Both the position numbers and the translations under genes were made by a program. DNA of 46,405 nucleotides, from IMG/VR virus record IMGVR_UViG_2687453454_000004. One strand, 5' to 3'. Positions 542 through 19,661 of the stretch are shown here, one piece after another. The notes beneath the pieces are model-generated. The model did not search any database. It saw nothing but the letters and a program-made list of their open reading frames with translations, and was not told the origin of the DNA. The stretch is from a virus. Lineage: Duplodnaviria; Heunggongvirae; Uroviricota; Caudoviricetes. The stretch's first letter is position 1. Each line of letters opens with the position of its first letter.

Positions 542-1579
542 TTAACGCTTATCCGCCACCAGTTTGAGCGCGTGTTCCAGCACATTAATGTCTGCACCCG
601 CTTTATGGGCATTTTCACTTAAATAACGCCGCCACTGCCGCGCGCCAGGAATACCCTGGAACAAGCCCAACATATGCCGGGTAATATGGCCGAGATACGT
701 CCCCTGGCTGAGTTCACGCTCAATGTACGGATACATGGCGCGCACTACCGCCACCGGATCGGCATCGGTATCCGAGGAACCAAAGATCTCCCGGTCTACC
801 GCCGCCAGAATACCCGGATTCTGATACGCCTCGCGCCCGACCATCACGCCATCCATATGTTGCAGGTGTGCTTTGGCCTCTTCCAGCGACTTGATACCAC
901 CGTTAATCGACATTGTCAGATGCGGAAAGTCACGCTTCAGTTGATACACACGCGGATAATCGAGCGGCGGGATTTCACGGTTTTCTTTCGGGCTTAACCC
1001 CGAAAGCCAGGCTTTACGTGCGTGGATGATGAACATCTCACACTCGCCTTTGCCGGAAACGGTATTGATGAAATCGCAGAGAAATTCATAGCTGTCCTGG
1101 TCGTCGATGCCAATACGCGTTTTCACCGTCACCGGAATCGACACCACATCGCGCATCGCTTTCACGCAGTCGGCAACCAGCTGCGCATTACCCATCAGAC
1201 ACGCACCAAACATGCCGTTCTGCACCCGGTCAGACGGGCAGCCGACATTCAGGTTGATCTCATCATATCCGCGCGCTTCTGCCAGCTTTGCACACTGCGC
1301 CAGCGCCGCCGGATCGCTACCGCCCAGTTGCAACGCTACCGGATGTTCTTCTTCACTGTACGCCAGATAATCACCTTTACCGTGAATAATCGCCCCTGTG
1401 GTCACCATTTCGGTATACAGCAACGTATTGCGGGAAAGCAGACGCAAGAAATAGCGGCAATGTCTGTCCGTCCAGTCGAGCATAGGAGCAATACTAAACC
1501 GAGAACTCCAGTAAGCGCCAGTTTTTTCAGGCATCACGCTGGTTTGATTAGTTTTCTGTGTTTCAGGATTATCGTGCAT
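542..1579 (-). CDS. dusA: tRNA-dihydrouridine synthase A; 5' end supplied by the prophage
   Basis: 345-aa ORF with TIM-barrel Dus signature (NLNVGCP...GGI); start codon at 1577-1579; first ~35 codons are about 80% identical to a displaced copy at 45232-45335. Confidence 0.9.
1476..1579. other. attL region (dusA 5' end, phage-derived replacement segment containing the crossover)
   Basis: Homologous to 45232-45335; longest identical block cagttttttcaggcat (1519-1534 vs 45275-45290); exact crossover point not resolvable by eye. Confidence 0.5.
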
Positions 1580-3296: not shown

Positions 3297-3848
3297 ATGC
3301 ATGACAATATTTGGTTTACATATAAAGCACGTATCCAAGCGCACCATCGACTAGAATGGCTTGAAAAACACTCTCAATTTATCCTCGTTTGGTATGCTAT
3401 ATTGAGTGCGGTACTTTCAATTGTAACGTTGCGATTTCCAAAGGTTCTAGGAGATAATACAGATGTCGTTGCGGCGATACTTTCAGTGGCTCTACTGGGT
3501 ATTTCTCTGATCGTATCTAACCTAGATTTTCGTGGTCGAGCAATAGCCATGAGAAGGAATTATATTGCACTACAGCGACTCTATTTTGACATTACCACCA
3601 GTCAACAGTTATCTCTTGAACAGAAAGAAAAATATTTTAATTTGCTCAATGAGGTTGAGAATCACCGTGACATAGATGATAAAATTTCAAGGGTAACTCA
3701 AGTTGGACTTAAGACGAGGATCCCCACACAAAAAGAAAAAATAATTGTTATTTTATGGATATTACTTCGAATATTTATTACTGCCGCACTTTATATACTC
3801 CCATTAATATATCTTTGGATTGACTATGACTGCAAGCAGAATTTTTAA
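3297..3848 (+). CDS. Multi-pass membrane protein, SLATT-like putative pore-forming effector
   Basis: 183 aa; AAGGA RBS; hydrophobic helices at about residues 27-46, 57-76 and 150-176 with a soluble middle segment; 3' end overlaps the RT start; AT-rich; SLATT assignment is an inference. Confidence 0.6.
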   Translation: MHDNIWFTYKARIQAHHRLEWLEKHSQFILVWYAILSAVLSIVTLRFPKVLGDNTDVVAAILSVALLGISLIVSNLDFRGRAIAMRRNYIALQRLYFDITTSQQLSLEQKEKYFNLLNEVENHRDIDDKISRVTQVGLKTRIPTQKEKIIVILWILLRIFITAALYILPLIYLWIDYDCKQNF

Positions 3849-5196
3849 AAAGTCATTCTCGAAAAAAAATCTTCTAAAAGTATACTCTGAAAAAATCAAA
3901 GAATCAGGAGCGATTGGCATAGATCGGATTCGCCCATCAAAACTTGATTTGACAATAAAAAATGAGATCACTTTCATTTTTGAAAAGGTTAATTCTGGCA
4001 ATTACAAATTTACAGCATATAAAGAAAAATTAATATCTAAAGGCGCTAACTCTACACCCAGACAGATTTCCATACCAACTGCTAGGGACAGAATTACTCT
4101 TAGAGCTCTCTGTGAATGCCTTACGGAAATATATCCTAAGTCCAGATTAAAACTACCACATACAGTAATTGACTCATTGAAAGAAGCATTAAACAACAGT
4201 CTATATGCTGAATATGCAAAAATAGATCTTAAAAGTTTCTATCCTTCAATTGAACATAAATTGATAATTAATGCAATAAAAAATAAAATTAGAAAAAAAG
4301 AAATTAGACAGTTAATAACATCATCATTAATCGTGCCTACTGTAAGTGGAACCACAGGAAGCAAAGGTATCCCTAATAATACCAGAGGAGTACCTCAGGG
4401 ATTAGCGATATCAAACATTTTAGCTGAAATATCACTATCTAATTTCGATGATGAAATCAATAAAATGCATGACATATGGTACATGCGATACGTTGATGAC
4501 ATTCTTATTTTAACACCAAAATATCAAGCAACAAAAATAGCTTCTCATATCATTGATAAGCTTCAATCATTAAATTTAAACCCACATCCATTAAATGAAG
4601 AGAACTCAAAATCCAAAGTAGGCAGCTTGGATGAAAGTTTCAACTTTTTGGGCTACCACATAAAAAATCGAGAATTATTGATAAAACATGAGAGCATTCT
4701 TAGATTTGAGTCATCCTTAGCAAAAATTTTTACTGCATATAGACACGCTCTACTACAAGCTAAAAATAAGCGCGATAAAGAACGAGCTGTTGCATATTGT
4801 CAGTGGAAACTAAATCTTAGAATTACGGGATGTGTGTTTGAAGGTAAACGATTGGGATGGGTATCGTACTTCTCACAAATAACGTCAACAGCTCAACTTC
4901 GAGCTGTTAATCATACGATCAATAATCTTATCCGCCGATTCGGCCTTTCATCAGAAATAAAACCAAAGTCTTTGATTAAAACTTTCTATGAACTCCGCAG
5001 GGGTAGAGCGGAGACTTTTAAATACATACCTAACTTTGACAATCTACATATATCTCAGAAACGAGAAATTGTTTCTATGTGGATAGGGAAAGAGAATGAA
5101 AAAAAACTTAGCAATAGTGAAATAGAGAGAAAATTTAAATTTAAAATTGCGAAATCAGTAAAAGAGCTTGAAGAGGACATTTCAGGGATATCATAG
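3820..5196 (+). CDS. Reverse transcriptase (unclassified: retron-like or UG/Abi-like)
   Basis: 458 aa (ORF track starts at TTG 3820; first ATG at 3826); RT motifs RQISIPTARDR, KIDLKSFYPSI, GVPQGLAISNILAEISL, YMRYVDDILIL (YVDD), FNFLGYHI; about 150-aa C-terminal extension. Confidence 0.9.
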   Translation: MTMTASRIFKKSFSKKNLLKVYSEKIKESGAIGIDRIRPSKLDLTIKNEITFIFEKVNSGNYKFTAYKEKLISKGANSTPRQISIPTARDRITLRALCECLTEIYPKSRLKLPHTVIDSLKEALNNSLYAEYAKIDLKSFYPSIEHKLIINAIKNKIRKKEIRQLITSSLIVPTVSGTTGSKGIPNNTRGVPQGLAISNILAEISLSNFDDEINKMHDIWYMRYVDDILILTPKYQATKIASHIIDKLQSLNLNPHPLNEENSKSKVGSLDESFNFLGYHIKNRELLIKHESILRFESSLAKIFTAYRHALLQAKNKRDKERAVAYCQWKLNLRITGCVFEGKRLGWVSYFSQITSTAQLRAVNHTINNLIRRFGLSSEIKPKSLIKTFYELRRGRAETFKYIPNFDNLHISQKREIVSMWIGKENEKKLSNSEIERKFKFKIAKSVKELEEDISGIS

Positions 5197-5491: not shown

Positions 5492-8400
5492 TCAATGTTC
5501 GCTTCCTGTTAACTGCCGGACAAGTGCAACCAGTTCGCTTACCTGATTTTCCAGAGTGCTGATCCGGGTGTCTGCTGTTGCCAGATTTTGACGTAGCGTT
5601 GTGTTTTCCTCTTCCAGCGCGGTAACGCGATCATCTGTTTCACGGGCGACCTGGACAAGTAAACCAGTCACCGCCGCATAATCAACATTGAGGTAACGCG
5701 TTTCTTCGCGTAGCTCGTTGCCATCAATGGTCGGACCCTGCAATTCTTCACCGTAACGAGTAAACGATCCTACGGCTTCCGGTAGCGCCTCCATTACTTC
5801 CTGTGCAATAACGCCAGCATAAGGAAGGCCGTTTTCCTTGAGCGTGTAGGTGTACCCGTTCATTTTGCGGATTGCTTTCGTCGCGTCGCTGATAACGAGA
5901 ATATCGTCTTTAAGGTCGCGGTCTGATGACTGATTCAGCGTTGTGCAATTAATAGCGCCATTTACATCAAACAACTGGCCTGCTGGCGTTCTTTGCGCAT
6001 AAAACAGATACGCAGCAGACGTTCCAACCTCAAAAACGTTTTGTCGATCACTTGAACCCCATACACTGATGTTAAACGGTAGTTCTGCATTACCTGCGTT
6101 CTTTAAAACAAAACGATTGCCAGTCCCTGACTGTTTTCTAATTACTAAATCAGCAGTTGAGTTAACCTCATCTTTGTTGATGGTTAGCGCCTGTGCTGTA
6201 GCACCGTTGACAGTACCGCTTAGTAGTTGCACCGCGCCATCATCGCCATTTAACAGCACTTGAGCGCTGCTTCTGTGGTTTTTAAGGCACAACATTTTTC
6301 CCGTGTTTTCCGATGTACCTACTGACCACGCCGAATTGGTTCCAGTGCTATCAACACCGCGCACAGCACAATTCATACTACTGTAATCTGACGTACTCCC
6401 CAGCACATCAACACGCCCGCCGCCTAATTTTGATGGAGTCGTCGAGGTTAACGACCTGACGGTCACATCCTGATTCCATCCTGAAACAACATGCTCGCTC
6501 CATGCTGTCCAATTACCATTAGTAACAAAACGAACATGCACGCGTCCTTTGTCGCCGCTAATCAGCGTTTGCATGTTTATATAATCTGAATCACTAACCT
6601 TACGAATTGACTCTACACGAAGCAAAAAGTTGCCGCCTACGCCGTCAGGCTTATTGGTAATATTCGAACCGCCTCCGGCAGTTTTGCAGTGATAGTATTT
6701 AACTGAACCTTTATCCGTGAACTTAATGATAAGGTCATTAAGATCGATAGTCATGCCTTCAATGGCTTCCGGCTCGATAGGCCCAGACATACCTGCGTTA
6801 AATGTGGCAAGGTCAGAAAATGTTGTTTTGCCGCCTACCGTTACCCCGCTATCGAGTATTGCTTGTGTAATTACTTTGCTGTTTTTTGTGTGGTCAGAAT
6901 AACCACCAAAATACAAATCACCGTCACCGTATATGCCGAGATATTTTTGGTCAACGTCATCAACCTTAAACCCAATGGATAAATTTTTAATTGTGTTGTT
7001 GCGCGTTAAAACCAGAGGAGTATGCTGAGATCCTTTTATGCTTACCGTAGTATCATCGGATCTAGTGCTTGTGTTTGCAAATTCTGCTTTTGCGCCTTTA
7101 GTTTTACCCGCTAATGTGAGATCACGGGCTTCAACCATCCCGTCGTGACGAACAATAAAATCACCACTTGATTGACCTTTTGCGTTTTTAGCCCTGATGT
7201 GAACTTCGCCAAGCGTATCAGTATTTGTAGGCGCAAAAATAACGCCGCGTTCCGACTGATCCTCATTTTGGAACCATACATGGGCGGTTCCACTTTTTGA
7301 ACGCAGGAATAGTGAAGGTGTTGCTTTAGTGATCGACAGATTACCTGACATAATGTCGCCGGATTTTTTCACCTGCGCATCGTTAGTTACGTTACCAAGT
7401 CCAACATCCGATTTCGACGGCTTGTATTTGGTTCCGTATAGCTCATTTATGTTAAAAGTACCATTGTTGAGTCTATTATCGTTACTAGAGTAAATCTTTA
7501 CTCTACCGCTTTCGTAATCGATATTAATAGCTGACCACGTATCGCCGCACCGCGAGAATATACCAGAACCGTGGCTGAAAATTGTTGATTCGCTACCTGT
7601 TGGTTTTCCTGACCTCCAGAAACACCCACCTTTCGCCCTTAGCTCTTGTAGTAGTTCCTTATCGGTCATTTTACCATCCAAAACAAGACCGCTACCGCCA
7701 AGACCAAAAGCGCCTATAAGCATAGCATTAGAAAGGCCCAAATCTGCTTTAGTCGGCTTGTTTACCTGGTCGTAAATCCTTACAACGTTGCCTTCAATAT
7801 ATCCAGAAGGCGCGGCGGTTTGCTTAACAAATCCGTCTGGAATGTATAATTCTGTGTTTAGTGTTGTCTGCGCCAGCACCGCAACCTTTGCGTCGTTAAT
7901 AAACGCACCCTGGAATGCCCAAACCTCAATAAAGCCGTCACCTTTAACCAGGCCGTAACGCATCTGGTTGTTATCGGTCAGCCCGGTTGACCCTAAGCGG
8001 CGTATACTCAGATGACGAGAAACATTATCCGCACTAAGCAAAGAAGGCAGACCGCGCGCCGAGATCTCGATAAAGTCAATGTTTCCGTAAGGGGAGCCGT
8101 AGTTACCAGCGTTAGTAACCATTAGCGTTACATGACTTCTGCTGGTTCCAGGATCGGAAAGTTTCGCGATCTTGATGTAAAGAGACTCACTAGCAGTAAC
8201 AACAGGCCAATCGTATTGCGTCATCGGGCTGACGAGTCCCCCGACCTTGTCGAGATATTCTTTCGCCTTGTTCTCTGACGCTTTAGCGTTGGTTTCGCTG
8301 ACCTTTGCTGCTGACTCACTATTTTTCGCGTTGGTTTCTGATTTTTTGGCTGCTGTCGCGGAGTTTGCCGATGCAGTTTGTGAGTCTGCTGCCGCCTGTG

Positions 8401-9986: not shown

Positions 9987-12900
9987 TCAACGAATACTGA
10001 TGCCGGAAGCAGCTTTTTTGGTCACAATCACCGTACAGTCGGTGATATTACCTGCCCACTGATTGCCTTTATGGAAAACCTTAAACTCCAGAGTGACGCT
10101 TCCCCTGCCACTCGGCATATCAATAACCGCACTGTAGCTACCGGGAATGGCCCCTTTAGTTTCTCTGGATGCGATTAATACACCGTTTTTGCGAACTTCA
10201 AAACCATAACCCGTGTATCTTGTACCTCCCGGGTTATTACCACTTCCCGGATCGCTATACGCTATTCCGTTAAAGATAATGGGTGGAATAATGATTTGAC
10301 GGTCAAAGTTATGATCATCGCTGATGGTGACTGTAACCGTCCCGTTTGGTGTTTCCGTGTTACCCCACGTACCAGCCTGTTTCGGGAATGATTTGGATAC
10401 AGCTTTAACGAAGTCACCTCTGACCTGAGTCGCCTCCAGCATGCCCTTAATCGTACAGTTTTCATTTACCGTGACATTGTTGAGCGTCCCGGCGTTCGCA
10501 TTCACGTTACCGCTGATATCGGCATTTTTCGCCGTCAGCCGCCCGTCCGGTGTCAGGGAAAATACCGGAGGATTACCGCCGCTGGTAATGGTGGGAGCCG
10601 TCAGGCGTTTCAGGAACACTTCGTTCATGAATATCTGATCGCCCTGACCAACAAACATCGGCTTTGTGTTGCCATTCGCAGGATTAATCATCGCAATCCT
10701 GTCTGCCGCCAGCAGCACCTGACTCTGCATGCCGTCAGGGGTGTTCTCAATACCGGCACCAATACCCGCGATATAAAGGCGTCCGTCCTGCATCTGCTGC
10801 AGCTTCACAGCCCACATGCTGTTCAGGTTATTATTTGTATCAACCTGAACCTTCTGTATCTGCTGAATTGCCGCACTCTGGTCTTCCAGTTTCTTATTGA
10901 CGGTCTGTGTGATTTCATTGCTGACATCCGTAATGGATGTCCTGATTTCAGCCAGGTCAGGCGCAAGCTGACCGTTATCAATCTGCGTCCACAGCTCCTG
11001 AGCCAGATGGGTTTTCCCTATCTCGCCTTTGAAAAAATCCAGATAGCCGGATGCGTCATCACTCGGCTGACCAACAGCCTCCACGAATGCCGATTTGCCA
11101 ACGGTGTTCACACTGCGAACGTAAAAATAATAATTATGGCCCGGTTTGATATTGATACTGGCGGCTATCCAGTACAACGCCGTACCAAGATAGCGTGCTG
11201 TGGTTTCAACCTGCCTGATATCCGCAATCCGCTTTTCCGAGAACCAGAACTCAAACTGTACCGTCGGATCATAAACCGCAAGATGCGGCGTGGCGGTTAT
11301 CTGAAAATAGCCCGGCGTCAGCTCAATCCGCGACGGCGCTGCCGGTGCGGCAATCCGGAACGATACCGACGCCGGATCGCCCTGCTGTCCCCATGCATTT
11401 ACTGCCCGGACTGTCAGCCTGTAGTTCCCCAGAGCCAGTTGTGTGAAGCGGTAAGTGGTTTCCGTCGTCCGGGCCGTGCTGACCAGCCGCTCACTGCCGT
11501 CATCCGCTGCCACGGTCAGGCGAAGCATAAAGCTCACCCCCTTCACCACCTTCGGCGTGTCCCAGCGGGCCAGCACCTGGTATTCCCCGCTGTCTGCGGT
11601 GACTTCGGCGGTCAGATGCTGCACTGCTGGCGGCGTGACACCATTCACCGTGCCGCTCTGGTCGCCGTCAAAGTGCGCCCCGTTATCCACGATGGCCTCT
11701 TTTTCCGGTACATGCTGCACGGCGGTGATGGCATACGTGCCGTCATCGTTCTCACGGATACTCACGCAGCGGAACAGGCGCTGGCGCAGCGTCGGCAGCT
11801 TCAGCCCCCATACGCTGTATCCGGCAACGCCGTCAGGAACACGGCTCACTTTTACCTTCACGCCGTCGGTGACGGACTGGACCTCCACGCTGACCGGATT
11901 GCCACTTCCGTCAACCAGGCTTATCAGCGTGGTACCGGAAGATGGCAGCGTGATTTCACGGTCGAGCGTCAGCGTCCGGGTCTGGCTGTTTACCGCCAGC
12001 ACGCGCCCGCCGGTGCGGATACCGGCATAGTCATCATCGCAGATTTCAATGACATCGCCCGGTACATGGCGAAGCCCTTCGGCACCCACGCTGAAGTCCA
12101 CGGTCTGCGTTTCCAGCAGTTCTGTTTTAATCAGCCACAGCCCGGCGCGGTGTGCCTGCCCCCGGCTGGTACAGCCAAAAGCATCCATCTTCGTGACGTT
12201 ACGACCGTAACGGGCAATGGCCTGCGTGTCCTCCACAAGCTCTGTCGCCGTCTCCCAGCCGTTATTCGGGTCAATCCAGTTCACCTCAACGGCATTATGG
12301 CGGTCCTTCAGGGCGCTGAAGCTGTAGCGGAACGGCGCACCATCATCCGGCATCACCACATTACTGCGGTTATAGGTCCACACCTTATCCGACGGTCGGT
12401 CCTGCACGAACGTCAGCGTCTGCCCGTTCCATACCGGCATACAGCGCATCGCAGAGCAGAAATCACTGAGCACATCCCACGCCTTGCGCTGTGTGGTCAG
12501 GTACGCATTACAGGTGATGCGCGGCTCTGTGCCGCCAAAACCGTCCGGCACCGACTGATCGCAATGCTGGCCGATGACATACAGCGCCCATTTGTCCACA
12601 TCCGCCGCACCAAGACGTTTCCCCATGCCGTAGCGCGGATGGGTCAGCATATCCCACAGACACCAGGCCATGTTGTTGCTGTATGCTGGCTTAAACGTTC
12701 CGTCCCAGATACCGCTGTATTGCCGCGTCTGCGGGTTATAGTTCGACGGCACCTGCAGAATGCGCCCGCGCAGATGATAATTACGGCTCACCTGCTGGCT
12801 GCCGAACTGCTCCGAATCCACCTGCACGCCGACCAGTGCCGTGTTCGGGTAGCACTGTTTCACATCGATGATTTCGGTGTATGACGACCAGAGCGTTTTG

Positions 12901-13484
12901 TTCTGCAGCTGGTCTGTGGTGCTGTCCGGCGTCATCCTGCGCATCCGTATATTGAACGGGCGCGGCGGCAGGTTACCCACCACCACCGAGGCCAGATACT
13001 GCGAGGTGGTTTTGCCCTTAATGGTGATGTCTTTTTCCGTCACCCAGCCACCATTACGCTGGATCTGAACCAGCAGGCGGACTTCCGACGGATTCCGGTC
13101 CCCCTTTGAGGTGGTTTCCACCAGTGCCTGCACGCCGAAGGTAAAGCGCAGACGGTCGATGTTTGCAGACGTAATGGTGCGGGTGATCGGCGTGTCATAT
13201 TTCACTTCCGTACCCAGCACCGTCTCGGAGCCGGAGGATTCAAACCCCTCCGGCGGTGTCTGCTCCTGCTCACCGGCACGGAACACCACCGTGACACCGG
13301 AGATGTTGGTATTCCCCTCAGTGTCCAGCACCGGCGTACTGTTCAGCAGCACGCTTTTTAATCCATCCACCGGACCTTCAATCGGCCCTTCGCTGATGGC
13401 ATCGATCACACTCAGCAACTGCGTGGACTTCAGGTTGTCCTTCGCTTCGCGCGGGGTATGCCCCTTACTGCTACCTTTACCCAT
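9987..13484 (-). CDS. J: Host-specificity / tail tip protein J
   Basis: 1165 aa, N-terminus [22 protein letters not shown]... and length match lambda gpJ. Confidence 0.95.
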
Positions 13485-13550
13485 TCCTCACACTCCATAA
13501 ACAACAAAGCCGCCCAAAAGGCGGCTCATGAGTTACGGCAGGATTAACTA

Positions 13551-13889
13551 TTATTTACATGCATTAACACTATCAGCAAAAATTTTTGGCGTTAATGCTG
13601 GTACGCGTTCATAAAGAGTAAAACTACTGCCATTTCCTGCTTTTTTGATATCAAGCACAACATCATACCCACCCATAGCCTGTGGAACTAAAAGGCTTAC
13701 CCCATTCTCAATAGGAATGGATGTTATAGGTGTTCCATTACCAGCCCATTGTCTGGATATGCAGCCTGACAATTCATCAATATTTTTTAATGAATTACCT
13801 TCCATTACAGGCTTGCCGGATTTTACGTAATCCAAAGATTTACATCCTGTTAAGGCAATAATCGTGCAGAATAAAATCGTTTTGTTCAT
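13551..13889 (-). CDS. Predicted lipoprotein moron between I and J
   Basis: Signal peptide with lipobox (MNKTILFCTIIALTGC from Met at 13889; track start 13901); AT-rich compared with flanking tail genes. Confidence 0.6.
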   Translation of the reverse strand: MNKTILFCTIIALTGCKSLDYVKSGKPVMEGNSLKNIDELSGCISRQWAGNGTPITSIPIENGVSLLVPQAMGGYDVVLDIKKAGNGSSFTLYERVPALTPKIFADSVNACK

Positions 13890-13961
13890 ATAGCTAACCA
13901 ACAGAATAATTATCAGTGTTCGATATAAATATTAAATCAGTTAGAACATGAGTAAATAATA

Positions 13962-14603
13962 TTACCGCCCAATTACCACAACCTGACCACCATCCCCTTC
14001 ATCTGCCGTGCTGATCTCCTGAGATGCCACACGTGACCCAACGCGCATTTCACCGTACAGAACAGGCAGGACATTGCCCTGGGCAACCATGTTATCCAAT
14101 GAGGAAAAATAGGTATTTTGCTTACCGTTATCAGTGGCTGACACTTTAGGCGTTTTGGCTTTCGGTGCCAGCATCTGCGCAACACCGCCTAAAACCATAC
14201 CTGCCCCAAGAGAGAACATGAGATTACTTGCAACAATACTAAGCCCCGGCATCCAGATTGCCGTAGCAATTAGCGCCGCACCCAGCACTGCCTGAAAAAT
14301 ACCGCCACTTTTGGCACCCGCCAGACGCGGTACGATGTGGATCACGGCACCATTTGCCAGCGGCTCATTAAGACGGGCAGATAATTCGTTTTCGCCTGCA
14401 TCACGCCCGGAAATGCGCACCTGATACCAGCCCTCATTCAGTTTCTGGCGAAACGCCGGAAGCTGCGTGGCCAGCGCCCGGATGGCTTCAGCCCCCGTTT
14501 TCACACGAAGGTCGATGCGGCGACCAAATCGTTGTAAATCCCCGTAAAGGCAGATGCGTGCCATGCCCGGTGACGCCAGAGGGAGTGTGTGCGTCGCTGC
14601 CAT
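13962..14603 (-). CDS. I: Tail assembly protein I
   Basis: MAATHTLPLASPGMARICLYGDLQRFGRRIDLRVKTG... matches lambda gpI. Confidence 0.9.
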   Translation of the reverse strand: MAATHTLPLASPGMARICLYGDLQRFGRRIDLRVKTGAEAIRALATQLPAFRQKLNEGWYQVRISGRDAGENELSARLNEPLANGAVIHIVPRLAGAKSGGIFQAVLGAALIATAIWMPGLSIVASNLMFSLGAGMVLGGVAQMLAPKAKTPKVSATDNGKQNTYFSSLDNMVAQGNVLPVLYGEMRVGSRVASQEISTADEGDGGQVVVIGR

Positions 14604-15244
14604 TTGTCGGTATACCTCTCTCGTTTGCTCAGTTGTTCAGGAATATGGTGCAGCAGCTCGCCGTCACCACAGTAAATGGCGGCATGATTCGGCACCGATG
14701 AACCAAAACAGCACAGCAGCACATCGCCCGGCTGCGCCGCTGACAACGGCACCTGATACAGCCCTGTGGCCTCCAGATTATCCAGATAGAGATTCTGACC
14801 GTTACGCCACCAGTCATCCTCGCGATGAAAATCCGGCATCTCAATCCCCGCCAGATGGTAAGCATCCCGGAACAGCGTGTAACAGTCCGTCACCCCGTGC
14901 TCAAAGCGCCGCCCGGTAAGATGTGGCACACAGCGGAACTTGTAAATCGCCCCCCGGCAGACCAGCCACCACGGCAAATCACTCTGCACCTGCAGCCGCC
15001 GATCGGCCTCACTCAGCCAGGGCAGACCACCGGGGTGACTGTGGACCAGCGCCACAATCTCACCCTGCATTTCTGCCTGCAGCCAGTCCTCCGGAGACAT
15101 CCGGAAATACTCCTCCGGCTCACCGGAGATATTCACGCAGGGAAAATATCTTTCCCCCTCCGGCGTTCTCACCACGAAGCCGCACGACTCCGCTGGCGCA
15201 CATCGCCGGGCGTGCGCCAGAATCGCTGATTCTGTCTCTGTCAT
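14501..15244 (-). CDS. K: Tail assembly protein K (NlpC/P60 plus JAB/MPN-like)
   Basis: Lambda gpK-like (HSHPGG, LLCC motifs); likely start MTETESAIL at 15244 just after the L stop; ORF-track start 15286. Confidence 0.85.
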   Translation of the reverse strand: MTETESAILAHARRCAPAESCGFVVRTPEGERYFPCVNISGEPEEYFRMSPEDWLQAEMQGEIVALVHSHPGGLPWLSEADRRLQVQSDLPWWLVCRGAIYKFRCVPHLTGRRFEHGVTDCYTLFRDAYHLAGIEMPDFHREDDWWRNGQNLYLDNLEATGLYQVPLSAAQPGDVLLCCFGSSVPNHAAIYCGDGELLHHIPEQLSKRERYTDKWQRRTHSLWRHRAWHASAFTGIYNDLVAASTFV

Positions 15245-15248
15245 GGGA

Positions 15249-15947
15249 TTACTGCGAAAGTTTGTTAATGGAAAGGAAGCCGCCAAAGTTGCCGACGTTA
15301 TTGCGAAACTTACAGCCGCTCAGGCATTTGCTGCATTTATCCTTCGTGATATCGGACGTCGGCTGGTCATATTCATCCGCGACTGCCGGACCGTGATAAC
15401 CGCACTCATCACCGCGATAGGTCCAGGTGCAGGTGTTGGCCAGCATGATACGTCCCGGAAAAACAGCGCCATCCGTTTCCGTCGGTGTGGACAACACAAA
15501 GGAGGCACTGACCGCACTCAGTTCGCTGCACTGCTCGATGCGCCAGCGGCTGATCACCTCCTGCTCCGGATCGGCGTCGCTGTTTCCGTTGACGAAGTTC
15601 ACCGCATCCAGAAAACGGGCGTAAACCTTACGCCTGACCACCGTTCCGCCGACCAGACTCTGCAGGTCTTCCGCCATCCCGGTGACCATGCCGTGCAGGT
15701 TAGAAACCGTCAGTGTCGGACGGGCAGCACTGCCCTTGCCGTTCAGTTCAAATCCCGTCCCCTGAATGGGGTATGCCTGATACTGCCGCCCCTGCCAGGT
15801 AACCGGCTCACCTTTTTCGTTCTGCTCATTACAGAAAAAATAACGTTCACCACCGACCTCTGTCAGATCGATTTCCCAGAGCACCACCTGGGCTGACTGA
15901 GTGATGCGTGTCGTCTCATGATGTGTTTCCTGTGGAATATCCTGCAT
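15249..15947 (-). CDS. L: Minor tail protein L
   Basis: 232 aa, lambda gpL-like with C-terminal Cys cluster. Confidence 0.9.
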   Translation of the reverse strand: MQDIPQETHHETTRITQSAQVVLWEIDLTEVGGERYFFCNEQNEKGEPVTWQGRQYQAYPIQGTGFELNGKGSAARPTLTVSNLHGMVTGMAEDLQSLVGGTVVRRKVYARFLDAVNFVNGNSDADPEQEVISRWRIEQCSELSAVSASFVLSTPTETDGAVFPGRIMLANTCTWTYRGDECGYHGPAVADEYDQPTSDITKDKCSKCLSGCKFRNNVGNFGGFLSINKLSQ

Positions 15948-15956
15948 CAGAGCCTC

Positions 15957-16286
15957 CTATGCCACGACCTGTTCAAAATCTGCCGTTATGGTTACCCACA
16001 GCGCCCCCACGCTTGCCGACCATTTACGACAAACCACCCTAATCGGTTTCCAGTCATAAGGTGGCGTCCACTGAAATGCGCGGACGCCACCGTGCCGTTC
16101 CAGAAAGGCTTTTAAAGATGGGTGTTCACATTTACGAACACGTATTGTCACGCTGTAAGTCGACAACTGGTTATTCAGTCCCGCCGCACGACGCTGTTCA
16201 TAACCATCGCCCAGCTTCACTGTCACCACTTTCGGCTCTGATACCACATTCATATCCGGGCGCACTTTCCAGTGAAACGTCTCCAT
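15957..16286 (-). CDS. M: Minor tail protein M
   Basis: 109 aa, lambda gpM-like; lambda gene order. Confidence 0.85.
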   Translation of the reverse strand: METFHWKVRPDMNVVSEPKVVTVKLGDGYEQRRAAGLNNQLSTYSVTIRVRKCEHPSLKAFLERHGGVRAFQWTPPYDWKPIRVVCRKWSASVGALWVTITADFEQVVA

Positions 16287-19200
16287 TACCGATATGCTCC
16301 ACTTAACCGACCACCATCACGGGCCTGCTGTTGCATAAAGTCCGCTGCTGCTTTTTTCCCGAGGTCATAAACCACCTTCAGGGCAGCCGGACCTATCTGC
16401 CCGTTCGTGCCATCGTTATTGATCTCGATGTTGTACTGCGGGGCAAACATCGCCATACCTGAACCACCAATATCCGCCACAACCCCCAGCTTACCGTCAG
16501 CACCACGACGCAGAGGCAGAATGGCTTCAGGCCCAGCTTCCCCCATCACACCTGCACCTTTTGCAAAAGCAAAAAACGTCGGACGGTTAACCACCGTGCC
16601 ACTGTAGCGACTCAAATCAGCAGACTGATAAACACCACCATCAGCATTGGGCGTCACACTGGCAGTTGCTGCACTCCCCCAGCCAAACGCCGAACCAATC
16701 CCCTTAACTGCCTGCATCATGGACATCTGAGCCATGATTTTTGCCAGATCAGAAAGGAGCGAGGCGGTAAAAGATTTGAAGTTCAGTTTTCCGGTAGTAC
16801 AGAACGTTGCCAGTGCATTACCTGCACTGTTAAATGCCGCTGTAAGCATCTGCTCAGCAGTGCCTGCCGCATTATCCGCATCTGCCGTGAAATTCTGAAA
16901 CGCCCGCATAGCACCGTTTTTCCAGTTACCCTGAGCAATTTCAAGCTGTTGCCAATAACGGCGATTCTCATTCAGTTGTCGGTTCAGGCTCTCCGTCAGC
17001 GCCTGCTCGGCCTTTCTGTAGTCATCCGTGTTATATGTCCCTTTCTGCTCACTATCCCGCCTCAACTGCTCCAGCTGTTGCTGGTATTTCTGGCGAAGAC
17101 TCAGTTGTACCTGATATCGCTGCCTCTGCTGATCACCCATACCCACCGTGGCGATATCCAGGTCATGTTGCTGACGCTGAGCGCGCTCTTCTTCAGCCAG
17201 TTGACTGGTCAGCTGAATTGTTTTTTTCTTCAGCTCGTTGAGTGCCGTCTGTTTCTGAAGCTCCTGCTGTTTTACATCCAGCAGCGTCAGTGCCTGAATC
17301 AGTTCATCTTTACGGGCCAGCACACTCTTTTCATCTGCCGTCAGTTTTTTCCCGTCCAGGTCGCTGATGCGCTGCTGCAGAGCCAGAAGCTGTTTATGCG
17401 CTTCTGTCATCTTTTCAGTGGCAATGCCTGCTGACTGTCTTGCAGCAGCAATCTGCCCTTCCACCTGTGCCTGTTGCTGACTGTACTGCAGCAATAACCG
17501 GGTGGCCTCATCATTACGGGTTTCGCGTGTTTTTTTCTTACCGGATGCCAGGGCTTTCTCGTAACGTTCATTTTCACGTTGTATCGCCGCATCCCTGACA
17601 GCCTGGTCGGCGTACTGCATGGCATTAATACGCGCAATTTCACGCTGATGTCGTGCTGCTTCCGTTTCATTCATCCGGTTCAGTGCAGCATTTTCAGCAT
17701 TACGTCGTTTCTGTTGCTCCTGATAATTCCGCTCTGCCTGCTCTTTTGCATCCTGCAAATCCTTCTGGCGTTTTTTCTCCTGAAGATCGTTAAGACGCTG
17801 CTGATCGTATTCAACCTGAGAAGATGATGCCGTCCAGGGGAGTCTTTTCGCCCGCGACACTTTCTCCTGTAAAGCGGCAATCTGTTCATCCAGCGAGTCT
17901 TCACGACCAATATTCATGGCCGCATCCCAGAAACGACTCCACAAATCAGACAGATACTTCAGCGTACTGCCAAGCGCATTGAGGTTATTATCAATATCCG
18001 CAGTACGCCGACCGGTTTCCTCTGCCAGTGCAGACATGGCTATCCGTGCAGCATCACTGGACCGTCCCTGATCCCCAAGGACACGTATCTGCTCAAGCTG
18101 AGTGGCAGTAAGAAAATGCAGCTCATTGTCCAGAGCCTTCGCGGCATTTACAGGATCATCCTTCAGCCGCTTAAACTGATTTATGGTATCGCTGACCGAC
18201 TGGCCAACCGATCGCTCCATCTGTGCGGCAGCTCTCGCCACCATACCGATATCGTTTCCACGAAATGCACCACTCCCCACCACCTGAGCCAGCGCACCGG
18301 CTGCAGCATGTTGCGTGATACCATTCCCGGAAATAGCACGACTGAGCGTCCACAGCTGCCCGGCAGTGACTCCGGCATAATGCCCCGTCAGCGACAACTG
18401 GCGGTTAAATTCTTCCCCCTCCTTCTGACCATCATACCAGGCTTTACCCAGACCATAGACGGCCGCGGCAATACCGCCAATAACCCAGCCCAGCATCATG
18501 CCTTTCGGTGACATCAGTGTGTCTATCCATCCGGCACGGTTAGCCAGCGTTATCCCGGATCCCCTCAGCGCACCTAAATTGCCGCGAGCCAGTTCACCTA
18601 TCAGAACGCCTATCTCCTGGCGGGCCGCTGCACTTTTCAGACCCAGCGAATGCGTGGCTTTTCCTGCCTGCTCCATTTTGCGGATATACACTTCTGCAGC
18701 ACTGCTTACCCCCAGCTGGGCAGCCTTAGCACGAAGCAACTCAGAAGAAGAAAGATTCTGGCGGGTTGCCTGCTCTTTAAGCTGACGGATAAACGCCACT
18801 TTCTGTCGGGTAGCCTCTTCCTCAGCCTGTGTAAGAACACGAGTTTTCGCAGTAACCTCAGAAATCAGCGCCAGATAATCCTGCTGACCAATCCCGCCAC
18901 TGTTTCTGGCCTGTCGGATCTGCTGCTGAATACGCTGTAATTCCTGCAGCCCCGCACTGGCCTGTTTCACACTGTCAATCTGACGATAAAACGCAGCAGC
19001 CGCTTTATCCTGAGCCTCCGCCAGAGCCATGGCCTGCGCCTGTTCCTCGCGCATTTTCTGGCTCAGTGCCTCCATGCGCTGGCGGGTTTTCTCCACCTCG
19101 CGGGCCATGCGTTCATGAGCCTGTGCGTTCTTCTCCACCGTCTGCGCATGGACGGATGCGGCTGTTGCAGCCGAAGAAGCTGCCTGCGTTGTCTGCCGGG

Positions 19201-19390
19201 CGGCCTGAGTCTGACGCTCCATAAAACGCTGCATACGGGCAGAAGACCGTTCTGCATCGCTGGCTGCACCATTCAGAAGGTTTTTGATACGGGGAATTTC
19301 ATTTTTAAACTCTGCCGCATCAATCCCCAAATCAATGACCAGGTTGGCTATCTGGTCCATAACGCACACCTCCGGAAATACCTTCCCCAA
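16286..19390 (-). CDS. H: Tail tape-measure protein H
   Basis: 1034 aa, coiled-coil-rich, C-terminal ...INNDGTNGQIGPAALK... as in lambda gpH; true start may be an internal Met. Confidence 0.9.
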   Translation of the reverse strand: MGKVFPEVCVMDQIANLVIDLGIDAAEFKNEIPRIKNLLNGAASDAERSSARMQRFMERQTQAARQTTQAASSAATAASVHAQTVEKNAQAHERMAREVEKTRQRMEALSQKMREEQAQAMALAEAQDKAAAAFYRQIDSVKQASAGLQELQRIQQQIRQARNSGGIGQQDYLALISEVTAKTRVLTQAEEEATRQKVAFIRQLKEQATRQNLSSSELLRAKAAQLGVSSAAEVYIRKMEQAGKATHSLGLKSAAARQEIGVLIGELARGNLGALRGSGITLANRAGWIDTLMSPKGMMLGWVIGGIAAAVYGLGKAWYDGQKEGEEFNRQLSLTGHYAGVTAGQLWTLSRAISGNGITQHAAAGALAQVVGSGAFRGNDIGMVARAAAQMERSVGQSVSDTINQFKRLKDDPVNAAKALDNELHFLTATQLEQIRVLGDQGRSSDAARIAMSALAEETGRRTADIDNNLNALGSTLKYLSDLWSRFWDAAMNIGREDSLDEQIAALQEKVSRAKRLPWTASSSQVEYDQQRLNDLQEKKRQKDLQDAKEQAERNYQEQQKRRNAENAALNRMNETEAARHQREIARINAMQYADQAVRDAAIQRENERYEKALASGKKKTRETRNDEATRLLLQYSQQQAQVEGQIAAARQSAGIATEKMTEAHKQLLALQQRISDLDGKKLTADEKSVLARKDELIQALTLLDVKQQELQKQTALNELKKKTIQLTSQLAEEERAQRQQHDLDIATVGMGDQQRQRYQVQLSLRQKYQQQLEQLRRDSEQKGTYNTDDYRKAEQALTESLNRQLNENRRYWQQLEIAQGNWKNGAMRAFQNFTADADNAAGTAEQMLTAAFNSAGNALATFCTTGKLNFKSFTASLLSDLAKIMAQMSMMQAVKGIGSAFGWGSAATASVTPNADGGVYQSADLSRYSGTVVNRPTFFAFAKGAGVMGEAGPEAILPLRRGADGKLGVVADIGGSGMAMFAPQYNIEINNDGTNGQIGPAALKVVYDLGKKAAADFMQQQARDGGRLSGAYR

Positions 19391-19661
19391 GATGCATCAG
19401 TTCTTCGTCCGTTCGCTCCGGTATCCCGTTCTCTTCCGGTAAAAGGCTGAAATCAGCCACCGCAGCATCACTGCTACCGGACACCATTCTCACGATCAAT
19501 GCCTTCAGCGAGGCAAACTGCGCATCCATCCACACATCACTGAAGCTCTGCATCCGGAAATAATCGCCCCACTCACCAAGCTCAGTGGCCGACATTTCCG
19601 ACAGCATCCGCCGCCAGTCTGCCCGCCGGAACTCCCGGGCAAGCCGCATGACAAACTGCAT
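19332..19661 (-). CDS. T: Tail assembly protein T (frameshift extension of G)
   Basis: -1 frame relative to G; frame open upstream to 19694, overlapping the G 3' end. Confidence 0.7.
   Translation of the reverse strand: MQFVMRLAREFRRADWRRMLSEMSATELGEWGDYFRMQSFSDVWMDAQFASLKALIVRMVSGSSDAAVADFSLLPEENGIPERTDEELMHLGEGISGGVRYGPDSQPGH

Follow-up and report, generated by a model that had tools for sequence, protein, structure and literature searches.

Phage lipoproteins and the morons of tail operons are known to bring about superinfection exclusion and lysogenic conversion. One of these lipoproteins, Bor, acts in serum resistance. The families that have been put to the test are few and comprise gp15, Cor, Llp, the mEp Lpps and Bor. 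The tail-operon moron gp15 of HK97 mediates exclusion (PMC3594210). [quoted passage not shown] Llp, Cor, Lpp021 and Lpp010 are encoded beside the receptor-binding gene or the 3' end of J, and they match the receptor of their phage (PMC9586334, PMC11893012). Ltp of Streptococcus phage TP-J34, likewise a lipoprotein of a prophage, stops infection at a step after adsorption (PMC3952083).

The window, by which we mean the whole 46,405-nt stretch of IMG/VR virus record IMGVR_UViG_2687453454_000004 (Caudoviricetes), has on its minus strand a tail operon of lambda-like type in the order T-H-M-L-K-I-J, followed by lom just downstream of J and by a side tail fibre gene. A first-pass annotation of this DNA had placed a small lipoprotein gene between I and J, and the open reading frame is indeed present there on the minus strand (13551..13901), with the base composition and lipobox that had been ascribed to it. 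Nested within its 116-aa TTG form is a 112-aa ATG form beginning at 13889, and the ATG is favoured because homologues begin at the equivalent Met and the RefSeq entry WP_153274582.1, a "hypothetical protein", has 112 aa. Two plus-strand open reading frames that overlap the gene (13645..13830 and 13730..13861) found no support. The Pfam domains of J are FNIII-A_GpJ, Phage-tail_3, Ig_J, Phage_Tail_Tip and Ig_GpJ_C. The features of the locus are as follows.

13551..13889, minus strand: lipoprotein coding sequence, 112 aa, PHROG 914; ATG at 13889-13887, stop TAA at 13553-13551
13842..13889, minus strand: predicted signal peptide and lipobox L-T-G-C; Cys16 codon TGT at 13844-13842
13890..13961, minus strand: AT-rich 72-nt leader from the I stop to the lipoprotein start, with a weak Shine-Dalgarno
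13529..13961, minus strand: accessory segment, ~430 nt in place of ~20 nt in empty-site prophages
13497..13527, minus strand: terminator-like hairpin, GAGCCGCC-TTT-GGGCGGCTT then TGTTGTTTAT, directly before the J Shine-Dalgarno
9987..13484, minus strand: J, tip attachment protein, right flank of the slot (Pfam domains as above)
13962..14603, minus strand: I, tail assembly protein, left flank of the slot (Pfam Lambda_tail_I, E=1.7e-23)
14501-15286, minus strand: K, tail operon
15249-15947, minus strand: L, tail operon
15957-16286, minus strand: M, tail operon
16286-19390, minus strand: H, tail operon
19332-19661, minus strand: T, tail operon

Elsewhere in the window, the prophage adjoins dusA (542-1579, minus strand) and pspG. 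A SLATT_5 protein gene (3297-3848, plus strand) and a reverse transcriptase gene (3820-5196, plus strand) lie between the integrase (1668-2765) and the side tail fibre gene and form a defence-associated reverse transcriptase pair, with a match to the PADLOC 'RTasSLATT' DRT model (E=1.5e-56).

Comparison of I-J junctions showed that the gene is an insertion where lambda has I and J adjacent, as had been proposed. In the alignment, the I-J spacer is only ~60 nt long in lambda and in two empty-site E. coli prophages (STEC309 and ATCC 25922), all three without the gene, and in the window ~20 nt of it are replaced by the ~430-nt segment. The lower GC reported for the gene was also borne out: the segment has ~37% GC and the gene 0.36-0.39, against 0.57-0.60 in I and J, and in the window and eight other enterobacterial phage loci the cassette lies 8-20 points under its flanks. 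Lambda, HK97 and the majority of E. coli prophages lack the gene. Among 5426 complete E. coli genomes, the I/J flanks were matched in 4283 and the cassette in 336 (~6%; 348 places, all at ≥95% identity), spread over many pathotypes and sources, a distribution unlike that of a structural gene conserved in all relatives. Across 59 IMG/VR E. coli loci, the cassette is 97.7-100% identical while the adjacent I varies from 85 to 99.8% (median 87.8) and J is ~95-96% identical, which argues that the cassette moves among mosaic backgrounds. Judged by its sequence, 13889..13551 on the minus strand is a functional accessory gene in the I-J moron slot of a lambda-like prophage.

The predicted prolipoprotein would be cleaved between MNKTILFCTIIALTG and CKSLD. 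Its N-terminus, MNKTILFCTIIALTGC, conforms to the PROSITE PS51257 lipobox rule (a positive residue in the first 7 aa, an uncharged h-region, [LVI][ASTVI][GAS]C, and Cys at 15-35) through K3, the hydrophobic stretch LFCTII and A-L-T-G-C16. The lipobox recurs in 122 of 133 family members by a PS51257-type pattern check, with Cys16 invariant, so that the assignment as a lipoprotein with an LTGC lipobox stands. Residue +2 is Lys in the window protein and A, S, T, K, V, G, E, L or M among the 122 lipobox relatives, with D in none. Since +2 is Lys and not Asp, the Lol rule predicts an outer-membrane lipoprotein. Exactly two further Cys are found in 118 of the 122, as would be expected if these outer-membrane lipoproteins each had a single disulfide in the periplasm, a bond that is itself inferred. 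The product would thus be exported, lipidated at Cys16 and cleaved by signal peptidase II (Sec/Lgt/LspA/Lnt/Lol pathway), and Lol would deliver it to the inner leaflet of the outer membrane, where the mature 97-aa part would form a compact domain, probably locked by a Cys43-Cys111 disulfide. It should not be a virion protein, because an exported product cannot join tail assembly in the cytoplasm.

The protein belongs to a family that is already catalogued, without name or function, and the kind of element it represents is known. The HMM of PHROG 914 ("unknown function") is matched over the full length (residues 1-112, E=5.7e-33), and is also matched by relatives from phage Fraca, a Klebsiella phage, Enterobacter, Dyella and two further loci (L086 and L075). 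An exhaustive profile search gathered 116 relatives at the 50%-identity cluster level, nearly all of ~112 aa, with homologues reaching down to ~24% identity; one match, the 1047-aa repetitive protein P0030, was set aside as compositional. Cys16, Cys43 and Cys111 are invariant across 30 divergent members, and P27, K35, W48 and G63 are nearly so. Related subfamilies occur in phages of Enterobacter, Citrobacter, Klebsiella, Kluyvera and Pseudomonas. Relatives were present in just a handful of the ~50,700 sequenced phage isolates searched (Fraca, LMessi, two Klebsiella phages and phiAH14a), all of which appear temperate or prophage-derived, and the remaining matches are on prophage or viral contigs. 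A single genome-contig scan returned one Kluyvera locus, and IMG/VR scans with the distant members P0016, P0019 and P0033 returned no close relatives. The exact protein is found on at least 1000 contigs, annotated as hypothetical every time.

Within E. coli, the copies are intact in 56 of 59 loci, and polymorphic sites number 11 synonymous against 6 non-synonymous, a pattern indicating that the gene is under purifying selection. Together with the PHROG 914 match, the distant homologues and the invariant Cys, this argues that the gene is real and more than a chance open reading frame. The three other loci (L061, L062 and L063; proteins P0002, P0007 and P0013) carry frameshifts, so the gene is occasionally decaying in cryptic prophages.

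Searches for function gave little. Scans of the window protein and 30 relatives against Pfam, NCBIfam and PADLOC yielded only lipobox or signal-peptide matches, with no Pfam match at an E of 1 or below and merely chance-level 2TM/4TM matches to PADLOC defence models in 2 of the 30 members. Among PDB sequences, a profile search hit signal peptides and nothing else, and literature searches for the family, the accession or PHROG 914 found no paper. An AlphaFold2 model built from a 7-sequence alignment had a mean pLDDT of 84, with most 10-residue blocks of the mature domain at ~90 or higher (range 80-97), and showed a compact beta-alpha-beta4-alpha topology. With this model, the best Foldseek match was the Francisella lipoprotein Flpp3 (E=9e-3, TM 0.52), T5 Llp was not retrieved, and the sole BFVD match was an uncharacterised homologue from Pseudomonas phage phiAH14a. 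The model resembles Flpp3 (DUF3568), the BamC N-domain and the KA1/TBP-like and DUF302 folds at 5-13% identity and without Pfam membership; as modelled, the fold similarity is generic and carries no functional assignment.

Relatives at 24-58% identity occupy other slots of the same operon. In a census of 162 phage loci, whose sampling is biased by the three query subfamilies, 91 genes lay between K and I, 58 between I and J and 7 between T and H, so that 156 of 162 fall inside the H-to-J tail-tip module. The K-I slot is used in phage Fraca, Klebsiella phage ST846-OXA48phi9.1, Kluyvera and several metagenomic phages, and the T-H slot in HK97-like prophages of Enterobacter and Citrobacter. Two distant members are found at the ends of prophages, behind lysis genes or beside integrases. 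Others are chromosomal, in Dyella solisilvae and similar contigs (L074, L083, L084, L085 and L176), and are always convergent with a GspH/FimT-type pseudopilin gene. The conserved chromosomal order is TonB-dependent receptor, receptor-like barrel, PpnN and lipoprotein gene, then convergent GspH and UvrB; three of the four contigs compared (Dyella solisilvae and three like it) share this order, and the fourth has only the convergent GspH in common. In four of the five loci the lipoprotein gene lies one gene downstream of two TonB-dependent receptor genes.

Some K-I loci hold additional cargo, including DUF6414, DUF4760, Arc, Bro-N, KilA-N and HTH genes and a second lipoprotein, and guilt by association with these genes gave no functional lead. 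In locus L064 (2311-5898) the K-I slot has expanded to 4 kb, and the lipoprotein gene is preceded there by Arc-like, Bro-N, KilA-N and cI-like HTH genes. Cargo of a regulatory or antirepressor type can thus build up in this slot. Fraca (L002) has two consecutive lipoprotein genes in this slot (5647-5994 and 6001-6336). The first, MRKFLSILACSLIIVGC..., belongs to phrog_2320, of unknown function, and its annotated start (5725) is too far downstream, hiding the signal peptide; the second is the PHROG 914 homologue. In HK97 (L174), the K-I gap of ~320 bp has no annotation in the record except a putative terminator. At 5061-5159 it contains a 32-aa open reading frame with one hydrophobic (transmembrane) helix, MYTVGFGWIFVGIFIGLILWFFINRASVRANR, and a good Shine-Dalgarno upstream, which may be a small membrane-protein moron.

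The gene had been called a moron at first pass, and under the Juhala/Hendrix definition (PMC3594210) it shows the defining marks of extra DNA between genes that are adjacent in related phages and of deviant base composition. The insertion, the low GC, the accessory distribution and the position in the slot of HK97 gp22/gp23 all sustain that name. No convincing promoter of its own was found, and the terminator belongs to the slot. Since its relatives occupy the classical HK97 slots, with others at prophage ends or in chromosomes, the moron reading is well supported except for promoter and terminator ownership.

The hairpin at 13497..13527 has homologues in the empty I-J spacers of lambda, STEC309 and ATCC 25922. 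A GC hairpin and T run before the next Shine-Dalgarno end the slot in lambda (empty), HK97, Fraca, locus L073 and the window, and a hairpin with a T-rich tail is found in 7 of 9 phage cassettes. Because it is present at empty slots and with the other cargo of HK97, we conclude that the terminator belongs to the slot and that cargo is exchanged upstream of it. That the terminator is a part of the cassette had been considered and was rejected after the lambda, empty-site and HK97 comparisons. The slot-end pattern, in K-I and I-J and in filled or empty slots, reads CCRCC-loop-GGYGG-TTTTTATGGRG; the HK97 hairpins are at L174:5295-5330 and 6605-6635, and the window hairpin differs from that of the lambda I-J spacer (L004) by one compensatory G-C to A-T change.

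A sigma-70 promoter scan of the minus strand found no site scoring at least 9/12 upstream of the window gene; the best hexamers by eye in the leader score 8/12 (TTTACT-16-TAATAT and TTTAAT-16-GATAAT). The same scan of the Enterobacter T-H cassette gave none at 9/12 or above, and the Fraca K-I region gave four hits, near the shuffled expectation, with none directly upstream of its two-gene cassette. In K-I cassettes the gene starts 30-40 nt after K with a good Shine-Dalgarno, leaving no room for a promoter. In the Enterobacter T-H locus L076 (7970-8000), the Shine-Dalgarno GGAGG can pair with CCTCC 8 nt upstream (aaCCTCCttacttctGGAGGtgtgaaaATG), a pairing that suggests possible translational control. 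Expression of the window gene from the Q-antiterminated late transcript is certainly possible, and a weak promoter within the 72-nt leader might also drive it in the lysogen, with the slot terminator ending that transcript before J.

We then considered how the cassette relates to the receptor-binding domain of J. The first-pass annotation had pointed to the blocking of an outer-membrane receptor, a model that predicts covariation with this domain, and none was seen. Where J is complete, in 36 E. coli loci, a single allele (97.7-100% nucleotide identity) accompanies at least four J C-terminal types (24/7/3/2/1 loci), which are 51-54% identical or unalignable; none of them is the lambda type. 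The J type of the window occurs in 2081 genomes against 336 with the cassette, six times more, and thus mostly without it. The cassette also lies at the 5' end of J, away from the receptor-binding end, and phage Fraca carries cor together with a PHROG 914 homologue. Since J types vary, the location is at the 5' end and Fraca has cor as well, a lipoprotein that masks the receptor of its own J, or blocks its own receptor, is disfavoured.

Taken together, we hold with high confidence that the gene encodes an exported, lipidated outer-membrane lipoprotein with a compact domain, which is not part of the virion and can be transcribed with the late operon. As to what this protein does, our main reading, drawn by analogy, is phage exclusion at the level of the envelope, to which we give a probability of roughly 0.4. 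Acting from the periplasmic side, the protein would bind some component of the envelope and so make the lysogen, or late-infected cells and their debris, resistant to infection by phages. It would work on the same principle as Llp, Cor or mEp Lpp010, but as an unrelated protein whose target is not dictated by the J receptor-binding domain of its own prophage. We favour exclusion because of the precedent of gp15, Llp, Cor and Lpp010, the near-exclusive carriage by temperate phages and the environmental hosts. The environmental Pseudomonas and Dyella-type contexts also argue against a mammal-specific virulence role. The syntenic chromosomal homologues of the Dyella type suggest a bacterial envelope function, which need not concern phages.

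These chromosomal homologues, in conserved neighbourhoods one gene from two TonB-dependent receptor genes, are also among the observations that speak for a lysogenic-conversion factor unrelated to phages, of the Bor/Iss or Lom kind. Such a factor might act in serum or antimicrobial-peptide resistance, in the import of colicins or contact-dependent toxins, in TonB-dependent nutrient uptake or in stress signalling. Lambda-type phages carry such cargo, with lom lying downstream of J here (PMC3594210), the best structural match is a Francisella virulence lipoprotein, Flpp3, and the gene is under purifying selection in many E. coli pathotypes and sources. We consider a fitness role of this kind credible but unlikely.

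The census bears instead on a block acting after adsorption, in which the periplasm-facing lipoprotein would bind emerging tail-tip or tape-measure proteins (H, I, L, M or the N-terminus of J) and stop DNA delivery, analogous to Gram-positive Ltp and, in effect, to HK97 gp15. The 156 of 162 phage loci inside the H-to-J module, and not beside the J receptor-binding end or the side fibres, would fit such a target, as would the subfamilies at just 24-35% identity that are still in the K-I slot, the independence from J domain type and the coexistence with cor in Fraca; the Enterobacter T-H slot is moreover the slot of the injection blocker HK97 gp15 (PMC3594210). Slot occupancy may, however, merely reflect intergenic sites that tolerate cargo, members are also found at prophage ends, and the syntenic chromosomal Dyella-like homologues are hard to reconcile with a phage-protein ligand. 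We regard this mechanism as doubtful. We know of no Gram-negative example of a post-adsorption block by such a lipoprotein mechanism. That PHROG 914 might be the first Gram-negative family of periplasm-facing outer-membrane lipoproteins to block infection after adsorption through the tail tip or tape measure is a long shot. If true, tail-tip targeting would explain the travel with the H-K-I-J(N) module, the three slots and the 24-100% sequence divergence.

A purely late lytic helper, made from the late transcript only and aiding release through outer-membrane remodelling or lysis timing, would have no role in the lysogen. The position inside the late operon and in its orientation, the K-I cassettes with their short distance to K, good Shine-Dalgarno and lack of promoter room, and the failure to find a convincing promoter in the window are all compatible with it. 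We nevertheless judge it very improbable: most close relatives of the prophage do without the gene, the window has a separate lysis cassette, the handful of phage isolates that carry relatives among ~50,700 appear temperate, and a terminator straight after a late-only gene lacks an obvious purpose. A tail structural or assembly gene, or a non-functional open reading frame, as the site between two essential tail genes and the annotation as "hypothetical protein" everywhere might suggest, is scarcely credible given a family-wide signal peptide and lipobox that take the product out of the cytoplasm, where tails assemble, its absence from lambda and most relatives, and the purifying selection with 56 of 59 copies intact.

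The PHROG 914 family is common, under purifying selection and confidently modelled in its fold, and it is a candidate for a new exclusion family or conversion factor. For the annotation of accessory genes in prophages, it is useful that the tail operons of lambdoid phages offer three fixed slots for cargo, with a conserved terminator closing each. There is little here to surprise a specialist unless the tail-tip-directed mechanism is true.

For the preferred reading of envelope-level exclusion, the described lipoproteins provide the nearest counterparts. No relation in sequence was found when the window protein was compared with Cor of Fraca, Lpp021 and Lpp010, and it has no sequence or fold similarity to the Cor, Llp or mEp Lpp exclusion lipoproteins. 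Lambda Bor/Iss is likewise a ~100-aa prophage lipoprotein carried as a moron, but Bor lies elsewhere in the genome and the window protein has no match to Pfam Lambda_Bor. Ltp is a Gram-positive surface lipoprotein; it is unrelated in sequence and serves as the model for the tail-tip-directed alternative. Lpp021 and Lpp010 of mEpimmI also lie within the structural cluster of temperate siphophages with a lambda-like K-I-J (PMC11893012), but they have 72-82 aa, are unrelated in sequence and are encoded directly after the J 3' end on the opposite strand. T5 Llp and Cor (phi80, N15, HK022 and T1) are, like the window protein, small periplasm-facing outer-membrane lipoproteins of phages encoded in a tail gene region, and they too have two further Cys, which form a disulfide in Llp and Cor (PMC9586334); the mature parts of Llp, Cor, Lpp021 and Lpp010 have ~60 aa against ~97 aa here. 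The cargo of HK97 is unrelated, gp15 being an inner-membrane protein and gp22 lacking a signal peptide, and gp15, unlike the present gene, has demonstrated promoter activity and prophage expression. The HK97 morons gp15 (T-H), the K-I cargo and gp22/gp23 (I-J) nonetheless occupy the same three slots as PHROG 914 (PMC3594210), and the deviant GC and the pattern of presence and absence are common to both and fit the definition of a moron (PMC3594210).
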